From a virus (Duplodnaviria; Heunggongvirae; Uroviricota; Caudoviricetes), in the IMG/VR virus record IMGVR_UViG_2713897074_000004, positions 1 to 5,813 of that record: a DNA stretch of 5,813 bases; one strand, given 5' to 3'. The notes beneath the pieces were generated by a model. The model had not been told where the DNA came from and made no database searches. It saw nothing but the letters and a program-made list of their open reading frames with translations. How positions within the stretch are numbered: position 1 is the first letter of the stretch; every line of letters begins with the position of its first letter. This document shows, piece after piece, positions 1-5,813 of the stretch. A program made the position numbers and the translations under genes.

Positions 1-62
1 CCGTTACGCACCACCCCGTCAGTAGCTGAACAGGAGGGACAGCTGATAGAAACAGAAGCCAC
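1..62 (-). CDS. insA: insA 5' fragment (IS1 InsA N-terminus), cut by window edge
   Basis: Minus strand from GTG at 62 translates MASVSISCPSCSATDGVVRN, the CxxC zinc-finger N-terminus of IS1 InsA; runs off the window. Confidence 0.7.
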   Translation of the reverse strand, partial: MASVSISCPSCSATDGVVRN

Positions 63-117
63 TGGAGCACCTCAAAAACACCATCATACACTAAATCAGT
101 AAGTTGGCAGCATCACC
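1..117 (-). mobile_element. IS1: IS1 terminal fragment: reverse complement of the first 117 bp of IS1 (insA-proximal end), element body lies left of the window
   Basis: Reverse complement of 1-117 reads GGTGATGCTGCCAACTTACTGATTTAGTGTATGATGG...GGGGTGGTGCGTAACGG, which I recognise as the IS1 left end including the insA start; exact inverted copy of 5697-5813. Identity from memory, not searched. Confidence 0.9.
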
Positions 118-2065: not shown

Positions 2066-2268
2066 GTAGGTCGCATTCGGCACTTATTGTCGGATGCGAT
2101 GCTTGCGCATCTTATCCGACCTACGAATCGCATCGAATCTGTAGGCCAGATAAGGCATTTTCGCAGCATCCGGCACTTATTGTCGGATGCGATGCTTGCG
2201 CATCTTATCCGACCTACAAATCGCATCGAACCGTAGACCGGATAAGGCGTTTACGCCGCATCCGGCAA
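2066..2268. repeat. BIME: 4-5 REP palindromes in alternating orientation, including a ~62-bp near-identical direct repeat (2076-2137 and 2169-2230)
   Basis: REP-like units GTCGGATGCGATGCTTGCGCATCTTATCCGACCTAC (x2, + orientation) alternate with inverted units TGTAGGCCAGATAAGGCATTTTCGCAGCATCCGGCA and CCGTAGACCGGATAAGGCGTTTACGCCGCATCCGGCA; sits between the convergent 3' ends of ybhJ and ybhC. Confidence 0.75.
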
Positions 2269-2282
2269 ATAGTTAATTGCTC

Positions 2283-3566
2283 TTACTTCTTCGCCTCTGC
2301 AACCACTTTACTACCCACGCCGCGGTTATTGTATTCCCACATGCGGTTGTAGTTAGTGTCATTCAGATTGCGCTGTATTTCGTCGTTATCATCTACGCTG
2401 CCGGTATTACCCGCAAACGGACGATTAGAGATCACCGCATCGGCCCACGGTTTAGCCGTGTTAAAACCTTCGTTGATGGCGCTATCACGGATCACCACCT
2501 GACCGTTGGTATTGGCATCAACATCCAGCGAGCGGCCCAGTTGCGCCACACCATCACCGAAAGCATTGAAACGGCTGTTTACGGCGAGGAAACCGTAGTA
2601 AATGTTGGACAGCGTAGCCGGTGCAAACACATACGCTTCTTGCTGAGTACGTGAGTTCACCACGCGGAATTCGGTGTTATCGAACACCACTGCGCCGCGA
2701 CCAGAAACGATATCCACATCCCCTTCAATGTAGCTGTTGGTCACCAGCGTACGCGGCTGACGATTCGTTTCCAGACGGTTCTGTACACCGCTGTTGGTGA
2801 CAAAGAAGGTGTTCTGACGACCGAGAATGTTAACGTTGTTAATCTGTACCTGGTCACCATCAGTACGCAGTGCCACCGCCGGATGGTTACCTGCATCTAC
2901 GCTATCGCCCAGCGTGTTTTCGATGGTCAGATTTTGCAGTTGCAGGCCATTGTTTTGTGACCAGAAGACCGCAGAGCAGAGAACACCGATACTGTCGCTG
3001 CGTTTGCTCTGGCAGCTATCGTACATATACCACGCTGGTTTACCTGGCATATATTTGCCGCGCGGGTTGACGTCGTGACGCCAGTCGGCAGGGCTCATGC
3101 CACCATCAAGGGAAAGCCCAATCTTCACATCAATCGGTTTTTCACCTGTACCGTACAGAGTAATTCCACCCGGAGCGGCAGGGACATATACCGTTCCCTG
3201 ATACTCACCAGGCATCACGGCAATATACTGGCGCTTGTTGGTACGCTTGATAATTGCCGCATCTACCGCCGCCTGAATCGTGGTATGCGTTACACCTTGA
3301 GTGCCCGCCGGGCCGACAACAAAGTCAGGTTGCGCAGGCAGGGTAATCGGGGAAGGATTCCACGCTGCAGCACCTGGTGTCAGGGATGCAAAATAGTGTT
3401 GAGCATCGAAATTCTGCGCTTCTTTTGCCGATAGAATCGGGCGAGAAGAGGTACCAGGCGCGGTTTGATCAGAAGGACGTTGATCGGGCGGGGTTGAGCT
3501 ACAGGCGGTCAGCGTCACGCCAAAAGCCAATGCCAGCGCCAGACGGGAAACTGAAAATGTGTTCAC
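2283..3566 (-). CDS. ybhC: YbhC, pectinesterase-family outer-membrane lipoprotein (annotated acyl-CoA thioesterase)
   Basis: 427-aa ORF with lipoprotein signal peptide and lipobox (MNTFSVSRLALALAFGVTLTAC|SS); GTG start at 3566 preceded by GGAG; sequence and position next to att lambda match E. coli ybhC by recall. Confidence 0.85.
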   Translation of the reverse strand: MNTFSVSRLALALAFGVTLTACSSTPPDQRPSDQTAPGTSSRPILSAKEAQNFDAQHYFASLTPGAAAWNPSPITLPAQPDFVVGPAGTQGVTHTTIQAAVDAAIIKRTNKRQYIAVMPGEYQGTVYVPAAPGGITLYGTGEKPIDVKIGLSLDGGMSPADWRHDVNPRGKYMPGKPAWYMYDSCQSKRSDSIGVLCSAVFWSQNNGLQLQNLTIENTLGDSVDAGNHPAVALRTDGDQVQINNVNILGRQNTFFVTNSGVQNRLETNRQPRTLVTNSYIEGDVDIVSGRGAVVFDNTEFRVVNSRTQQEAYVFAPATLSNIYYGFLAVNSRFNAFGDGVAQLGRSLDVDANTNGQVVIRDSAINEGFNTAKPWADAVISNRPFAGNTGSVDDNDEIQRNLNDTNYNRMWEYNNRGVGSKVVAEAKK

Positions 3567-3599: not shown

Positions 3600-3705
3600 T
3601 CCGTTGAAGCCTGCTTTTTTATACTAAGTTGGCATTATAAAAAAGCATTGCTTATCAATTTGTTGCAACGAACAGGTCACTATCAGTCAAAATAAAATCA
3701 TTATT
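3600..3705 (+). other. attL: Phage lambda attL (B-O-P'): 15-bp common core 3613-3627, IHF H' site, arm-type Int sites P'1-P'3
   Basis: Bacterial arm ...TTGAAGCCTGC followed by core GCTTTTTTATACTAA and phage arm GTTGGCATTATAAAAAAGCATTGCTTATCAATTTGTTGCAACGAACAGGTCACTATCAGTCAAAATAAAATCATTAT; IHF consensus TATCAATTTGTTG at 3653-3665; arm-type sites AGGTCACTAT, CAGTCAAAAT, AAATCATTAT at about 3675-3705. Confidence 0.85.
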
Positions 3706-4771
3706 TGATTTCAATTTTGTCCCACTCCCTGCCTCTGTCATCACGATACTGTGATGCCATGGTGTCCGACTTATGCCCGAGAAGATGTTGAGCAAACTTA
3801 TCGCTTATCTGCTTCTCATAGAGTCTTGCAGACAAACTGCGCAACTCGTGAAAGGTAGGCGGATCCCCTTCGAAGGAAAGACCTGATGCTTTTCGTGCGC
3901 GCATAAAATACCTTGATACTGTGCCGGATGAAAGCGGTTCGCGACGAGTAGATGCAATTATGGTTTCTCCGCCAAGAATCTCTTTGCATTTATCAAGTGT
4001 TTCCTTCATTGATATTCCGAGAGCATCAACATGCAATACTGTTGGGATGGCAATTTTTACGCCTGTTTTGCTTTGCTCGACATAAAGATATCCATCTACG
4101 ATATCAGACCACTTCATTTCGCATAAATCACCAACTCGTTGCCCGGTAACAACAGCCAGTTCCATTGCAAGTCTGAGCCAACATGGTGATGATTCTGCTG
4201 CTTGATAAATTTTCAGGTATTCGTCAGCCGTAAGTCTTGATCTCCTTACCTCTGATTTTGCTGCGCGAGTGGCAGCGACAGGGTTTGTTGTTATATGGCC
4301 TTCAGCTATTGCCTCTCGGAATGCATCGCTCAGTGTTGATCTGATTAACTTGGCTGACGCCGCCTTGCCCTCGTCTATGTATCCATTGAGCATTGCCGCA
4401 ATTTCTTTTGTGGTGATGTCTTCAAGTGGAGCATCAGGCAGACCCCTCCTTATTGCTTTAATTTTGCTCATGTAATTTATGAGTGTCTTCTGCTTGATTC
4501 CTCTGCTGGCCAGGATTTTTTCGTAGCGATCAAGCCATGAATGTAACGTAACGGAATTATCACTGTTGATTCTCGCTGTCAGAGGCTTGTGTTTGTGTCC
4601 TGAAAATAACTCAATGTTGGCCTGTATAGCTTCAGTGATTGCGATTCGCCTGTCTCTGCCTAATCCAAACTCTTTACCCGTCCTTGGGTCCCTGTAGCAG
4701 TAATATCCATTGTTTCTTATATAAAGGTTAGGGGGTAAATCCCGGCGCTCATGACTTCGCCTTCTTCCCAT
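3701..4771 (-). CDS. int: Lambda integrase Int (tyrosine recombinase), apparently intact
   Basis: 356-aa product MGRRRSHERRDLPPNLYIRNNGYYCYRDPRTGKEFGLGRD... recognised as lambda Int; catalytic signatures present (HELRSLSARLY, LLGHKSDTMASQY with the active-site Tyr); overlaps xis by 23 bp as in lambda. Confidence 0.95.
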   Translation of the reverse strand: MGRRRSHERRDLPPNLYIRNNGYYCYRDPRTGKEFGLGRDRRIAITEAIQANIELFSGHKHKPLTARINSDNSVTLHSWLDRYEKILASRGIKQKTLINYMSKIKAIRRGLPDAPLEDITTKEIAAMLNGYIDEGKAASAKLIRSTLSDAFREAIAEGHITTNPVAATRAAKSEVRRSRLTADEYLKIYQAAESSPCWLRLAMELAVVTGQRVGDLCEMKWSDIVDGYLYVEQSKTGVKIAIPTVLHVDALGISMKETLDKCKEILGGETIIASTRREPLSSGTVSRYFMRARKASGLSFEGDPPTFHELRSLSARLYEKQISDKFAQHLLGHKSDTMASQYRDDRGREWDKIEIK

Positions 4772-4967
4772 TTCTGATCCTCTTCAAAAGGCTACCTGTT
4801 ACTGGTCGATTTAAGTCAACCTTTACCGCTGATTCGTGGAACAGATACTCTCTTCCATCCTTAACCGGAGGAGGGAATATCCTGCACTCGCGTACCCATC
4901 GACGAACTGTTTCAAGGCTTCTTGGGCGTCGCTGGCGTGCGTTCCACTCCTGAAGTGTCAAGTACAT
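4749..4967 (-). CDS. xis: Lambda excisionase Xis
   Basis: 72-aa product MYLTLQEWNARQRRPRSLETVRRWVRECRIFPPPVKDGREYLFHESAVKVDLNRPVTGSLLKRIRNGKKAKS recognised as lambda Xis. Confidence 0.95.
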   Translation of the reverse strand: MYLTLQEWNARQRRPRSLETVRRWVRECRIFPPPVKDGREYLFHESAVKVDLNRPVTGSLLKRIRNGKKAKS

Positions 4968-4995: not shown

Positions 4996-5014
4996 AAAAA
5001 CCGCCATCAGGCGG
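4995..5014 (-). terminator. Putative weak intrinsic terminator at the orf55 stop (5-bp GC stem, 4-nt loop, 6 U)
   Basis: Minus-strand RNA GCCGCCUGAUGGCGGUUUUUU: stem CCGCC/GGCGG followed by UUUUUU. Short stem; function unverified. Confidence 0.3.
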
Positions 5015-5174
5015 CTTGGTGTTCTTTCAGTTCTTCAATTCGAATATTGGTTACGTCTGCATGTGCTATCTGCGCCCATATCATCCAGTGGTTATAACAG
5101 TCGTTGATGTTCTCTGCTTCGATAACCCTGTTGAATGGCTCTCCATTCCATTCACCTGTGACTCGGAAGTGCAT
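5007..5174 (-). CDS. Small lambda hypothetical protein (orf55-like, 55 aa) between xis and the ea8.5 slot
   Basis: ATG at 5174 preceded by GGAG (7-nt spacer); translates MHFRVTGEWNGEPFNRVIEAENINDCYNHWMIWAQIAHADVTNIRIEELKEHQAA, stop at 5007-5009; below the length cutoff of the supplied ORF track; position matches the small ORF next to xis in lambda (by recall). Confidence 0.6.
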   Translation of the reverse strand: MHFRVTGEWNGEPFNRVIEAENINDCYNHWMIWAQIAHADVTNIRIEELKEHQAA

Positions 5175-5185
5175 TTATCATCTCC

Positions 5186-5212
5186 ATAAAACAAAACTCG
5201 CCGTAGCGAGTT
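5186..5212 (-). terminator. Putative rho-independent terminator downstream of the 142-aa gene (7-bp stem, 4-nt loop, U-rich tail)
   Basis: Minus-strand RNA AACUCGC-UACG-GCGAGUU followed by UUGUUUUAU; lies 46 nt after the stop at 5258 and just before the orf55 RBS. Confidence 0.45.
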
Positions 5213-5257
5213 CAGATATAATTTCCACCAAAGGCAGTAGTTGCTTGATGCTAAGAA

Positions 5258-5686
5258 TTATTCAATATCTATTCCTGTAATATCTTTTATCTTTTTCCTT
5301 GCAAAGCCTTTTGCTAGTGATTTTGAAACACTCATAAGTGTACTAATTCCCTCATCCTTAAAGTTTGTTTTTATAGCTTGCCAGACATCCTTTTGACGTA
5401 AGTCAGCAATAAAATCATGCCCTCTTGCTGTCAACCTCAGTGGTACTTCGATCCAACTATATCCAACACCTTCCCCTAACGCTTTGGACAATATATGACC
5501 GAACCCAGGTTTTCCATCAACCCTGACTATTAATTCGTAGTCACATAATAATCGCATATGGAAAATAAAATCTTGGTCATATCTATTAAAGCCATTATCC
5601 TCTAGTTCACTAAGCATCGTGTCAGGGCCACGAGTTTTTTCGAATGCGATAAGTAGATCTTTTAGATATTGCTGGTCTAATTTCAT
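5258..5686 (-). CDS. Hypothetical protein, 142 aa, unknown function; prophage accessory (moron-like) gene in the slot occupied by ea8.5 in lambda
   Basis: ATG at 5686 preceded by GGAGG with a 5-nt spacer (CACCGGAGGCGGCAATG); product MKLDQQYLKDLLIAFEKTRGPDTMLSELEDNGF...KKIKDITGIDIE; no hydrophobic segment long enough for a transmembrane helix, no signal peptide, one Cys; lower GC than the neighbouring lambda and host genes. The ORF track extends it to a TTG at 5710 inside the IS1 end, which I reject. Confidence 0.7.
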   Translation of the reverse strand: MKLDQQYLKDLLIAFEKTRGPDTMLSELEDNGFNRYDQDFIFHMRLLCDYELIVRVDGKPGFGHILSKALGEGVGYSWIEVPLRLTARGHDFIADLRQKDVWQAIKTNFKDEGISTLMSVSKSLAKGFARKKIKDITGIDIE

Positions 5687-5696
5687 TGCCGCCTCC

Positions 5697-5813
5697 GGTG
5701 ATGCTGCCAACTTACTGATTTAGTGTATGATGGTGTTTTTGAGGTGCTCCAGTGGCTTCTGTTTCTATCAGCTGTCCCTCCTGTTCAGCTACTGACGGGG
5801 TGGTGCGTAACGG
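5697..5813 (+). mobile_element. IS1: IS1 terminal fragment: first 117 bp of IS1 (insA-proximal end), element body continues right of the window
   Basis: GGTGATGCTGCCAACTTACTGATTTAGTGTATGATGGTGTTTTTGAGGTGCTCCAGTGGCTTCTGTTTCTATCAGCTGTCCCTCCTGTTCAGCTACTGACGGGGTGGTGCGTAACGG recognised as the IS1 end; exact inverted copy of 1-117. Confidence 0.9.
5752..5813 (+). CDS. insA: insA 5' fragment (IS1 InsA N-terminus), cut by window edge
   Basis: GTG at 5752 then MASVSISCPSCSATDGVVRN...; runs off the window. Confidence 0.7.
   Translation, partial: MASVSISCPSCSATDGVVRN

Follow-up and report, generated by a model that had tools for sequence, protein, structure and literature searches.

Single-chain sensor-effector proteins of abortive infection, such as the PADLOC candidates PDC-S35, PDC-S66 and PDC-S60 and AbiTi, carry an N-terminal recogniser followed by a TIR or membrane effector. 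The DUF2513 family (Pfam PF10711, PHROG 585), whose members are mostly small standalone proteins, has no assigned function. Our literature search for DUF2513 or PF10711 found no paper naming the family, and it was also unnamed in the results of literature searches on YjcQ with the winged helix and on integron defence screens. YjcQ (PF09639) is a prophage-associated winged-helix family that some DUF2513 members match weakly; to our knowledge, it is likewise functionally uncharacterised.

The DNA analysed here, referred to as the window, is a stretch of 5,813 nt from a Caudoviricetes virus record. An earlier note, made from the sequence alone, had singled out a gene of uncharacterised function beside the lambda-type xis gene as a candidate for phage defence, and the literature searches agree with it that the function is undescribed. 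We show below that this gene is an intact DUF2513 member occupying a variable slot in a decayed lambda-like prophage, and we evaluate what such a protein might do.

Gene Call and Sequence Composition

The DUF2513 gene lies on the minus strand at 5258..5686, with the start codon ATG at 5684–5686 and the stop codon TAA at 5258–5260. As the earlier note had it, the product is 142 aa long with a single cysteine (C48). The winged helix-turn-helix (wHTH) core covers residues from about 5 to 98, followed by C-terminal helices at 99–137 and a basic KKK end. The described acidic N-terminal half and basic tail were recovered in the calculated isoelectric points, 4.6 for residues 1–50 and 9.6 for residues 101–142. 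A 150-aa reading frame with a TTG start was rejected as an artefact; it extends into an IS1 element, while all homologues begin with MK(I/L)(D/N).

A Shine-Dalgarno sequence GGAGG, read directly from the sequence at 5692..5696 on the minus strand, is located 5 nt upstream of the ATG and comprises the last native bases ahead of IS1. Phage Chlobot and strain ATCC 8739 have identical bases here; because the Chlobot phage is intact, the site is considered native, and the gene does have the ribosome-binding site of its own that had been proposed. The GC-content of the gene is 36%, compared to 45–49% in int, xis and orf55 and 53% in host genes.

Prophage Context and the Variable Slot

The genes beyond DUF2513 are of lambda type, about 97% identical to those of lambda, as the earlier note had recognised. 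They comprise the integrase gene int (3701..4771) and the excisionase gene xis (4749..4967), both taken from the open reading frame list and annotated as such, and orf55 (5007..5174), a 55-aa ‘undocumented’ lambda gene assigned to phrog_676 (unknown function). All three are located on the minus strand. The lambda att core GCTTTTTTATACTAA was found on the plus strand at 3613..3627 as an exact match, with 0 expected by chance, and marks the attL side of the prophage remnant. We conclude with high confidence that the locus lies in a decayed prophage that occupies attB-lambda of an ETEC-type E. coli.

A survey of related phages demonstrated five different occupants of the slot after orf55: lambda has the 93-aa ea8.5 gene, HK022 and HK106 have genes of 94 aa and 266 aa, respectively, ev099 has a gene of the LprI family, and the window has DUF2513. 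The suggestion of a swappable slot was thus correct, as was the distinction of this gene from Ea8.5, to which its sequence is unrelated. With high confidence, the DUF2513 gene is a foreign, low-GC occupant of this variable slot, i.e., swappable cargo of lambda-like phages.

Between the DUF2513 gene and orf55, a terminator scan identified a hairpin with a T-run at 5194..5213 on the minus strand (fold z-score −2.0). Read on that strand from 5213 to 5194, it consists of an 8 bp stem followed by TTTTGTTTT, and it begins 44 nt past the stop codon, not 46 nt as had been stated. The same hairpin is present in lambda imm434, HK106, ev099 and Chlobot. Homology ends at about 5219–5222, where a five-phage alignment places a mosaic junction (5219..5222) at which the lambda-common backbone stops and the DUF2513-specific insert starts. 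The hairpin is not specific to the DUF2513 gene, because it also occurs in lambda, HK106 and ev099; judging from this alignment, it is a boundary element of the shared lambda backbone, and its assignment as a terminator belonging to the gene was rejected. As regards the moron-like architecture proposed earlier, the GC-content of the gene does deviate from that of the flanking phage genes, and neither a terminator nor a sigma-70 promoter of its own was found.

IS1 Insertion and Loss of the Upstream Region

The alignment of the window with intact phages breaks at 5697, where IS1 starts. The left end of this IS1, with the inverted repeat IRL GGTGATGCTGCCAACTTACTGAT followed by the first part of insA, which points away from the DUF2513 gene, occupies 5697..5813 on the plus strand. 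It matches IS1 in phage P1 and other records at 100%, contains a perfect inverted repeat match at 5697–5719, and corresponds to the IS1 transposase annotated by RefSeq at the right end of the window. A second IS1 left end, in inverted orientation, interrupts ybhJ at 1..117 on the minus strand (inverted repeat match at 95–117). The two ends are 100% identical over 117 nt, and RefSeq reports ybhJ split by IS1 in ETEC O6:H16 strain 2011EL-1370-2.

IS1 directly adjoins the Shine-Dalgarno sequence, a juxtaposition that the earlier note overlooked. The gene therefore has no native upstream region: the window lacks both the phrog_536 gene and the conserved 12-bp palindrome GTGACATGTCAC found there in intact relatives, and with them has gone the early-left transcript by which the gene would normally be read. 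A promoter scan of the gene's strand from the DUF2513 gene to the end of the window detected no promoter-like site. The window copy is probably poorly expressed or silent. This copy, a remnant that is clonal within an ETEC lineage, orphaned by IS1 and already annotated, matters less than the family it belongs to.

Family Membership and Selective Constraint

Although the earlier note considered the protein unassignable to any family from sequence, it matched Pfam DUF2513 (PF10711) with 42.5 bits against a gathering cut-off of 29.6 (E = 8.6e-11), residues 2–115 aligning with profile positions 1–100 of 100. It was also matched over its full length by phrog_585 (E = 2e-34) and already bears the RefSeq name “DUF2513 domain-containing protein”. 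The gene can be described with high confidence as an intact member of an uncharacterised family already annotated in RefSeq. A search of NCBIfam matched no model, and the sequence search of the PDB that had been called for returned one chance-level match only (E = 0.87).

DUF2513 is present in 183 of 5,426 complete E. coli genomes. A family profile search yielded 1,440 clusters (50% identity), most of which match from position 1 to about position 136; nearly all are standalone proteins of 130–150 aa. In an alignment of 40 sequences, homology extends over the full length, including the C-terminal extension past the Pfam model. Y7, F42, G63, R84 and T86 are invariant in the wider family, and H43 nearly so.

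Phage homologues are saturated at synonymous sites (pS 0.73–0.95), with pN of 0.13–0.33. Among close E. coli variants, dN/dS is about 0.7–1.0, a value resting on very few changes and consistent with relaxed selection in decaying prophages.

Predicted Structure

The AlphaFold (AF2) model of the window protein has a pLDDT of 93.5 and takes the form of a winged helix of MarR/PadR type, to which three extra C-terminal helices are added; the wing has four strands, and the beta strands span residues 53–85. The model thus predicts, with high confidence, a DUF2513 protein built from a winged helix-turn-helix core plus three C-terminal helices. Its structural neighbours are winged-helix DNA binders, the closest being repressors of the MarR/PadR/HxlR type. 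The recommended Foldseek comparison of this model with the PDB and BFVD returned no match at E ≤ 0.001 and nothing characterised. The invariant residues Y7, R84 and T86, together with the nearly invariant H43, could form a ligand pocket instead of a DNA-reading surface.

The protein does contain the HEPN-like pattern R-x(4-6)-H that had been pointed out (RLTARGH, residues 84–90), and both R84 and H90 are invariant in 40 close homologues. An RNase toxin using this motif nevertheless has virtually no chance of being the correct reading. The confident model is a winged helix and not an all-alpha HEPN fold, R84 is placed in a beta strand and H90 at a helix start, and winged-helix DNA binders, not HEPN proteins, are the structural neighbours. 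Neither Pfam nor PADLOC results included a HEPN family, and some members of the wider family, such as P0197, P0244 and P0167, have Q, R or I in place of H90. The motif therefore stands and the HEPN nuclease was rejected on fold.

Mobility and Effector Fusions

DUF2513 genes were found in three accessory slots of lambdoid phages, lying next to xis-orf55, within the nin region or upstream of the terminase. A Vibrio homologue, which aligns with the window protein over its full length (HHalign probability 99.4%), is flanked by two attC/VCR repeats of a superintegron with no other called gene between them, and the neighbours of this cassette differ between strains. In some phages, a retron RT I-B gene (E = 2e-111) or a PDC-S67 gene (E = 6e-40) directly adjoins DUF2513.

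A minority of family members are fused to effectors. In P0129 and six other 90%-identity clusters, DUF2513 is joined to a CAP12/Pycsar-type TIR; P0241 carries a ThsB/PDC-S66-type TIR (E = 1.8e-57), P0197 a PDC-S60-like domain (E = 2e-28), and P0113, P0204 and P0193 AbiTi-like tails. These fusions score E = 1e-17 to 1e-36 against the DUF2513 family profile. P0113 and P0129 are 58% identical over the entire 144-aa module and have unrelated effectors; over 133 aa, the window protein shares 39% identity with the sensor part of P0129. Judged from the best 150 family-profile matches and the 90%-identity fusion clusters, fusions are a small minority, with about 10 of the best 150 of 1,440 clusters longer than 190 aa. 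A search with an N-terminal profile gave 120 matches, almost all of them standalone.

The window protein itself has no effector domain, the sequence stopping after the DUF2513 module, and no effector is encoded in its neighbourhood, where orf55 and IS1 are the adjoining elements. The proposed check against PADLOC-DB v2 returned 0 families for the window protein at E up to 10; in the DUF2513 fusions, it is the effector parts alone that PADLOC models match. In Chlobot, where the neighbours are phrog_536 and orf55, neither has a PADLOC match. The suggested link to defence thus draws on the fusions, the retron RT and PDC-S67 neighbours and the integron cassette, and not on a PADLOC match or an effector in the window. 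Taken together, these comparisons point plausibly towards defence and make the gene a reasonable but unproven candidate.

Upstream Region in Intact Relatives

The gene upstream of DUF2513 in intact relatives, phrog_536, encodes a protein of about 112 aa with a Cys-rich C-terminus and is annotated as a transcriptional regulator. A sigma-70 promoter scan upstream of the DUF2513 gene in intact Chlobot called none. Inspection by eye showed a TGnTATAAA-like element that overlaps the stop codon of phrog_536; the strict scan calls no promoter there, and the element was not accepted as a promoter of the gene.

Of 37 distinct upstream contexts, 12 contain the perfect 12-bp palindrome GTGACATGTCAC 10–12 nt ahead of the ATG, and 2 more contain it with one mismatch. 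The palindrome is invariant though flanking bases vary and the protein diverges to 57–76% identity. In 847 kb of loci it occurs 62 times against 0.05 expected, including two independent sites within other phage genes. Two identities for the palindrome were dropped by eye, a LexA box, for which one CTG/CAG half fits per locus only, and a CRP site, for which the spacing is unsuitable.

Proposed Function and Alternative Explanations

Our best explanation overall, to which we assign a probability of about 0.38, is that the gene is an intact DUF2513 cargo gene encoding an autonomous recogniser that excludes phages through binding alone. The 135–145-aa module would be a self-contained recognition domain for a specific macromolecule, a proposal of low confidence; the ligand would most likely be a nucleic acid, bound through the winged helix. 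In a minority of relatives, the module is fused to what would be suicide effectors (a TIR of NADase type, a PDC-S60-like domain or an AbiTi-like tail), an arrangement of sensor and effector that is typical of abortive-infection proteins. Lacking an effector, the standalone form, if protective, would occlude or sequester a component of the incoming phage and so act as a repressor-like exclusion factor. Against this explanation, defence through binding alone is a less common design, and fusions are a small minority of the family. Furthermore, the gene is located in the early-left operon, in the nin region or near the terminase, and the scan called no promoter for it. This suggests that it is expressed in the lytic cycle, and a role benefiting the phage would account for such expression no less well than protection of the lysogen would.

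A role benefiting the phage would be that of an anti-defence decoy or sponge, in which standalone phage DUF2513 mimics and blocks host DUF2513-TIR and DUF2513-AbiTi sensors, hypothetically by sequestering the trigger or by forming dead mixed oligomers. CAP12/Pycsar-type TIR domains generally pair with ligand-sensing domains, and a standalone protein of 161 aa with DUF2513 only (P0313) is 78% identical to P0129 over 53% of its length. P0113 and P0129 keep the whole module including the C-terminal helices, and the position of the gene in lytic-cycle operons, with no promoter called in the scan, also fits. However, the known fusions are metagenomic and not from the Enterobacterales that host these phages, and it is hard to see what benefit an anti-defence gene would bring as a cassette in a Vibrio chromosomal integron. 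We regard this reading as quite improbable. Somewhat unlikely, in our estimate, is an ordinary winged-helix regulator without any role in phage exclusion, a DUF2513 dimer binding GTGACATGTCAC and perhaps other sites to control its own gene or phage and host genes. The MarR/PadR/HxlR-type folds closest to the model, the conservation of this candidate operator just upstream of the ribosome-binding site in relatives, its excess over expectation in the loci and the regulator annotation of phrog_536 itself all argue for such a protein. Plain repressors, however, are not fused to TIR or AbiTi-like effectors, and one would not expect a regulator lacking a linked target either as a promoterless single-gene integron cassette or as a gene moving between three unrelated phage slots; Pfam gave no MarR/PadR match either. 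Moreover, the 3′ end of phrog_536 always precedes the palindrome, which may therefore belong to that gene, and the palindrome is missing in many members, some of which have an intact phrog_536 (L075, L054).

The association with phrog_536 could also reflect a two-gene module, for example regulator-effector or toxin-antitoxin-like, of which the window copy would be a dead half. In Chlobot, phrog_536 lies immediately upstream on the same strand, 28 nt away; the same arrangement is seen in other loci, whose outer flanks are of at least five kinds, and the 3′ end of phrog_536 is kept together with the palindrome where the rest of the gene is replaced. Yet DUF2513 is intact despite an internal stop in phrog_536 in ATCC 8739, alongside truncated phrog_536 in L019–L024 and L043–L046, and with no phrog_536 at all in L047–L049, L053, L055 and L076–L085. 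The Vibrio homologue is alone in its cassette, and phrog_536 has no PADLOC or Pfam match. Obligate pairing was rejected as a requirement, since phrog_536 is broken or absent in several loci and the Vibrio cassette is solitary, and we consider the two-gene reading very improbable.

Returning to the autonomous recogniser, a broader and bolder version can be formulated, which we hold to be plainly unlikely. Here, DUF2513 would be a widespread class of effector-less immunity or counter-immunity proteins, in which a winged-helix module of roughly 140 aa would recognise a nucleic-acid or protein cue specific to phages and block infection through binding alone, or phage-borne copies would blind the DUF2513-TIR and DUF2513-AbiTi sensors of the host. 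The module would be common to phage slots and Vibrio cassettes, and GTGACATGTCAC, if bound by DUF2513, would serve as a self-site for autoregulation or self-immunity. Should phage exclusion or counter-defence prove true, a function would be provided for a DUF with more than a thousand sequence clusters. Lambdoid cargo slots and integron cassettes would then be linked as carriers of one small immunity module, and the sensor domains coupled to TIR and AbiT-type effectors would gain a winged-helix recogniser. Through phage escape mutants, the fusions of sensor and effector also give practical access to the trigger.

Comparison with Known Systems

Compared to Pfam DUF2513 and PHROG 585, the window protein is a plain member with nothing different about it. 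The only DUF2513 member above the YjcQ cut-off is P0114 (E = 5.5e-6, 26.9 bits against 23.3), and the window protein had no YjcQ match in the Pfam search. With Ea8.5 of lambda and the other slot occupants, including the 266-aa gene of HK106 and the LprI-family gene of ev099, the gene shares position, orientation and the downstream boundary hairpin and no sequence relationship.

MarR/PadR/HxlR regulators have the wHTH fold in common with the predicted model. In contrast to them, DUF2513 has a longer wing of four strands and, at the end of its C-terminal helices, a conserved basic KKK motif. Foldseek E values between these regulators and the DUF2513 model were no better than 0.07, and the Pfam search with the window protein gave no MarR/PadR match at E up to 10. 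Among the single-chain sensor-effector proteins of abortive infection, P0129, P0241, P0197, P0113, P0204 and P0193 carry a DUF2513 module before their effectors. The window protein is homologous to that recogniser and stops where the effector would begin.

The DUF2513 gene and its family

The gene occupies positions 5258–5686 of the minus strand (ATG at 5684–5686, TAA at 5258–5260) and encodes a protein of 142 aa with a single Cys. Direct reading of the ORF confirmed the description in the earlier note, including its own ribosome-binding site (GGAGG at 5692–5696, 5 nt before the ATG) and an acidic N-terminal half followed by a basic tail, with pI values of 4.6 for residues 1–50 and 9.6 for residues 101–142. 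A longer, TTG-started ORF of 150 aa is an artefact that extends into IS1; all homologues begin with MK(I/L)(D/N).

The protein had been considered unassignable from sequence; however, it matched Pfam DUF2513 with 42.5 bits (cut-off 29.6) and phrog_585 over its full length (E 2e-34), and is an ordinary, already annotated member of a known, uncharacterised family. The PADLOC check proposed in that note gave no match for the window protein, nor did NCBIfam or PDB sequence searches, and a literature search found no paper containing "DUF2513" or "PF10711". The fold is predicted to be a winged helix-turn-helix extended by helices at the C-terminus. The RLTARGH motif (residues 84–90), previously taken as a HEPN-like hint, is present, with R84 and H90 invariant in 40 close homologues. 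However, the HEPN reading was rejected: R84 falls within a beta strand of the model, whose fold is not all-alpha, and the searches matched no HEPN family.

Prophage context and IS1 insertions

As recognized earlier, the neighbouring int, xis and 55-aa orf (orf55) are of lambda type, with ~97% identity to lambda; the att core lies at 3613–3627. GC-content is 36% in the DUF2513 gene, 45–49% in int/xis/orf55 and 53% in ybhJ and ybhC. The position following orf55 is taken by Ea8.5 in lambda, by genes of 94 aa in HK022 and 266 aa in HK106, by an LprI-family gene in ev099, and by DUF2513 in both phage Chlobot and the window, in agreement with the proposed swappable accessory slot. A hairpin followed by a T-run (5213..5194, minus strand) is located 44 nt past the stop codon, a distance given before as 46 nt. 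The same hairpin occurs in lambda, HK106, ev099 and Chlobot, with homology stopping just beyond it (~5219–5222); it represents a backbone boundary element rather than DUF2513's own terminator. A strict scan called no sigma-70 promoter upstream of DUF2513 in the intact phage. The suggested moron-like architecture therefore holds for base composition, by which the gene is foreign cargo, but it is not demonstrably a self-contained promoter-gene-terminator unit.

Two further features were observed in the window. Between orf55 and xis (4998–5017) there is another terminator-like hairpin, AAGCCGCC-TGAT-GGCGGTTT with a T-run after it, within a 60–75-nt stretch that is 95–100% conserved in P22-like, Sf6, HK620 and Stx phages and annotated in their records as 'aI RNA terminator', 'bsq2 boundary sequence' or a promoter/cII site. 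Between ybhJ and ybhC (2073–2267), a REP/BIME-like palindromic unit is tandemly duplicated (spacing of 93 nt, 97% identity), giving rise to spurious repeated ORFs at 1819–2226 and 2060–2236.

The last 117 bases of the window (5697–5813) are an IS1 left end with insA reading away from the DUF2513 gene and the terminal repeat GGTGATGCTGCCAACTTACTGAT directly abutting its Shine-Dalgarno sequence. Alignment with intact phage Chlobot and the ATCC 8739 prophage showed identity through GGAGG, then a total break. A second IS1 left end (1–117) is inserted in ybhJ, splitting it. The two 117-nt ends are 100% identical and inverted, each with insA facing outward, and so enclose the 5.6 kb running from the ybhJ fragment to DUF2513 in the manner of a composite element. 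The window matches NZ_CP022912.1 (3241191–3247003) of ETEC O6:H16 strain 2011EL-1370-2, where the RefSeq order is IS1-split ybhJ, ybhC, int, xis, the 55-aa orf, WP_000762731.1 ("DUF2513 domain-containing protein"), IS1 and a patchwork of prophage fragments; given what lies beyond the gene, this copy is at the disrupted margin of a decayed prophage. IS1 took away both the palindrome and the phrog_536 gene found upstream of DUF2513 in intact relatives, and a scan of the DUF2513 strand from the gene to the window end found no promoter-like site. Independently of any functional reading, the window copy is probably weakly expressed or silent.

Distribution and mobility

A search with window positions 5258–5686 found the gene in 183 of 5,426 complete E. 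coli genomes. Plasmids, such as the 304-kb record NZ_CP081768.1, accounted for 11 of the 188 gene-holding places; these are possibly phage-plasmids, or else large plasmids with prophage fragments. By tblastn, only three sequenced phages hold the gene. A profile search of 1.84 billion representatives yielded 1,440 clusters at E ≤ 0.001, nearly all of 130–150 aa and matching over the full module. Among 80 viral contigs, the gene holds at least three lambdoid accessory positions: beside xis-orf55; in the nin region, in the order methylases, phrog_536, DUF2513, DUF1367, YbcO and Q, or alternatively Ren-like, DUF2513 and DinI; and just upstream of the terminase genes. Homologues in viral contigs showed saturated pS (0.73–0.95) with pN of 0.13–0.33, indicating long-term purifying selection; near-identical E. 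coli copies gave dN/dS of ~0.7–1.0, on very few changes.

Single-gene mobility extends to bacterial integrons. Full-length alignment of the Vibrio homologue P0263 extends through the C-terminal KKK helix (HHalign probability 99.4%), and P0263 is the sole called gene between two VCR/attC repeats of a 14-repeat array. Its superintegron neighbours are RelE/MqsA, CcdAB, ParE/Phd, Fic and HEPN_AbiU2 cassettes, varying by strain. In one Vibrio locus (L090 3000–12450, GCA_014525175.1) the single-gene cassette lies among Fic, HEPN_AbiU2, acetyltransferase and DUF645 cassettes, and in other strains (L091, L093) it adjoins RelE/MqsA or RelA_SpoT cassettes. Another distant member is found in a similar one-directional array adjoining an integrase. 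Phage defence encoded by integron cassettes has been described (10.1101/2024.07.02.601719; PMC12614218); the abstracts of these two sources do not name the DUF2513 family.

Upstream palindrome and phrog_536

Intact relatives carry, 10–12 nt upstream of the DUF2513 ATG, a perfect 12-bp palindrome, GTGACATGTCAC (L001, Chlobot, ~6510–6521; matching position in L011, L043–46, L050–51, L057–58 and L063–68). Of 37 distinct upstream contexts, 12 have the perfect form and two more a form with one mismatch; the palindrome remains invariant although flanking bases vary and the protein diverges to 57–76% identity. The 847 kb of loci contain 62 copies against 0.05 expected. Two independent sites lie inside other phage ORFs, a cII-like gene (L047, L049, L075) and an exonuclease-like gene (L057, L065, L066).

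Without exception, the palindrome comes after the 3′ end of phrog_536 (L001 6526–6864 by ORF call; cluster c2 in viral loci), a gene of ~112 aa with a Cys-rich C-terminus, annotated 'transcriptional regulator' and without match in Pfam or PADLOC. In the deposited Chlobot annotation, this region is divided between a 46-aa 'transcriptional regulator' and a 'UmuD-like protein'. In many loci phrog_536 directly precedes DUF2513; often it is cut down to its final ~30–35 nt, next to the palindrome, with other sequence in place of the remainder. L069 and L072 carry extra sequence between palindrome and DUF2513; in L069 (176–613) this includes a 145-aa ORF that by eye resembles another small winged-helix-type protein, without match in Pfam or PADLOC. 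Possible roles for the palindrome are as operator of DUF2513, as operator of phrog_536 or as a recombination boundary.

Fusions to effector-type domains

Among the best 150 of the 1,440 clusters, ~10 exceed 190 aa. P0129 carries a CAP12/Pycsar-type TIR domain (Pfam E 7.7e-21; PADLOC PDC-S35, CBASS TIR effector and PycTIR), P0241 a TIR_2 domain (PADLOC PDC-S66, E 1.8e-57; ThsB) and P0197 a PDC-S60 match (E 2e-28), while P0113, P0204 and P0193 share a common tail matching AbiTi (E down to 5e-7) and PDC-M14B. P0113 and P0129 are 58% identical across the whole 144-aa module and diverge completely beyond it. At least seven clusters at 90% identity contain the TIR fusion, and the P0129-type TIR domain is also joined to thousands of other N-termini. 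Standalone P0313 shares 78% identity with P0129 over the aligned 53%. Over 133 aa, the window protein shares 39% identity with the sensor part of P0129.

Defence-type genes also adjoin DUF2513 in some loci. In L060 (~2250–3240), a shortened DUF2513 ORF (97 aa by ORF call) is immediately followed by a retron-type RT (PADLOC RT_I-B, E 2e-111), the candidate defence gene PDC-S67 (E 6e-40) directly follows DUF2513 in L061 (downstream of 6432), and the adjacent gene in L074 is a weak TIR-effector match (E 7.5e-6).

Possible function

The DUF2513 module would recognise its ligand, most likely nucleic acid, as an autonomous domain, and the standalone protein, having no effector, would act through binding alone. 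Defence or exclusion by binding is ranked first, with a probability of about 0.38, because it is the sole reading that fits prophage cargo slots, bacterial integron cassettes and effector fusions alike. A role in protecting the lysogen is opposed chiefly by the gene's location in lytic-cycle operons, where no promoter was detected. A plain autoregulated transcription factor, with the predicted winged helix-turn-helix and the upstream palindrome in its favour, is a weaker possibility.

The window protein could also serve as an anti-defence decoy of the fused sensors, which seems improbable. Slightly less probable still is an obligate pair with phrog_536, which is consistent with their adjacency and at odds with the loci retaining only the 3′ end of that gene. 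The gene is a fair candidate for experiment through family-level leads, namely the sensor-effector fusions, the integron cassettes and the palindrome. The arrangement seen in the fusions, a single recogniser with interchangeable killing domains, is typical of abortive-infection proteins, as known from CBASS, Pycsar, Thoeris and Avs-type systems.
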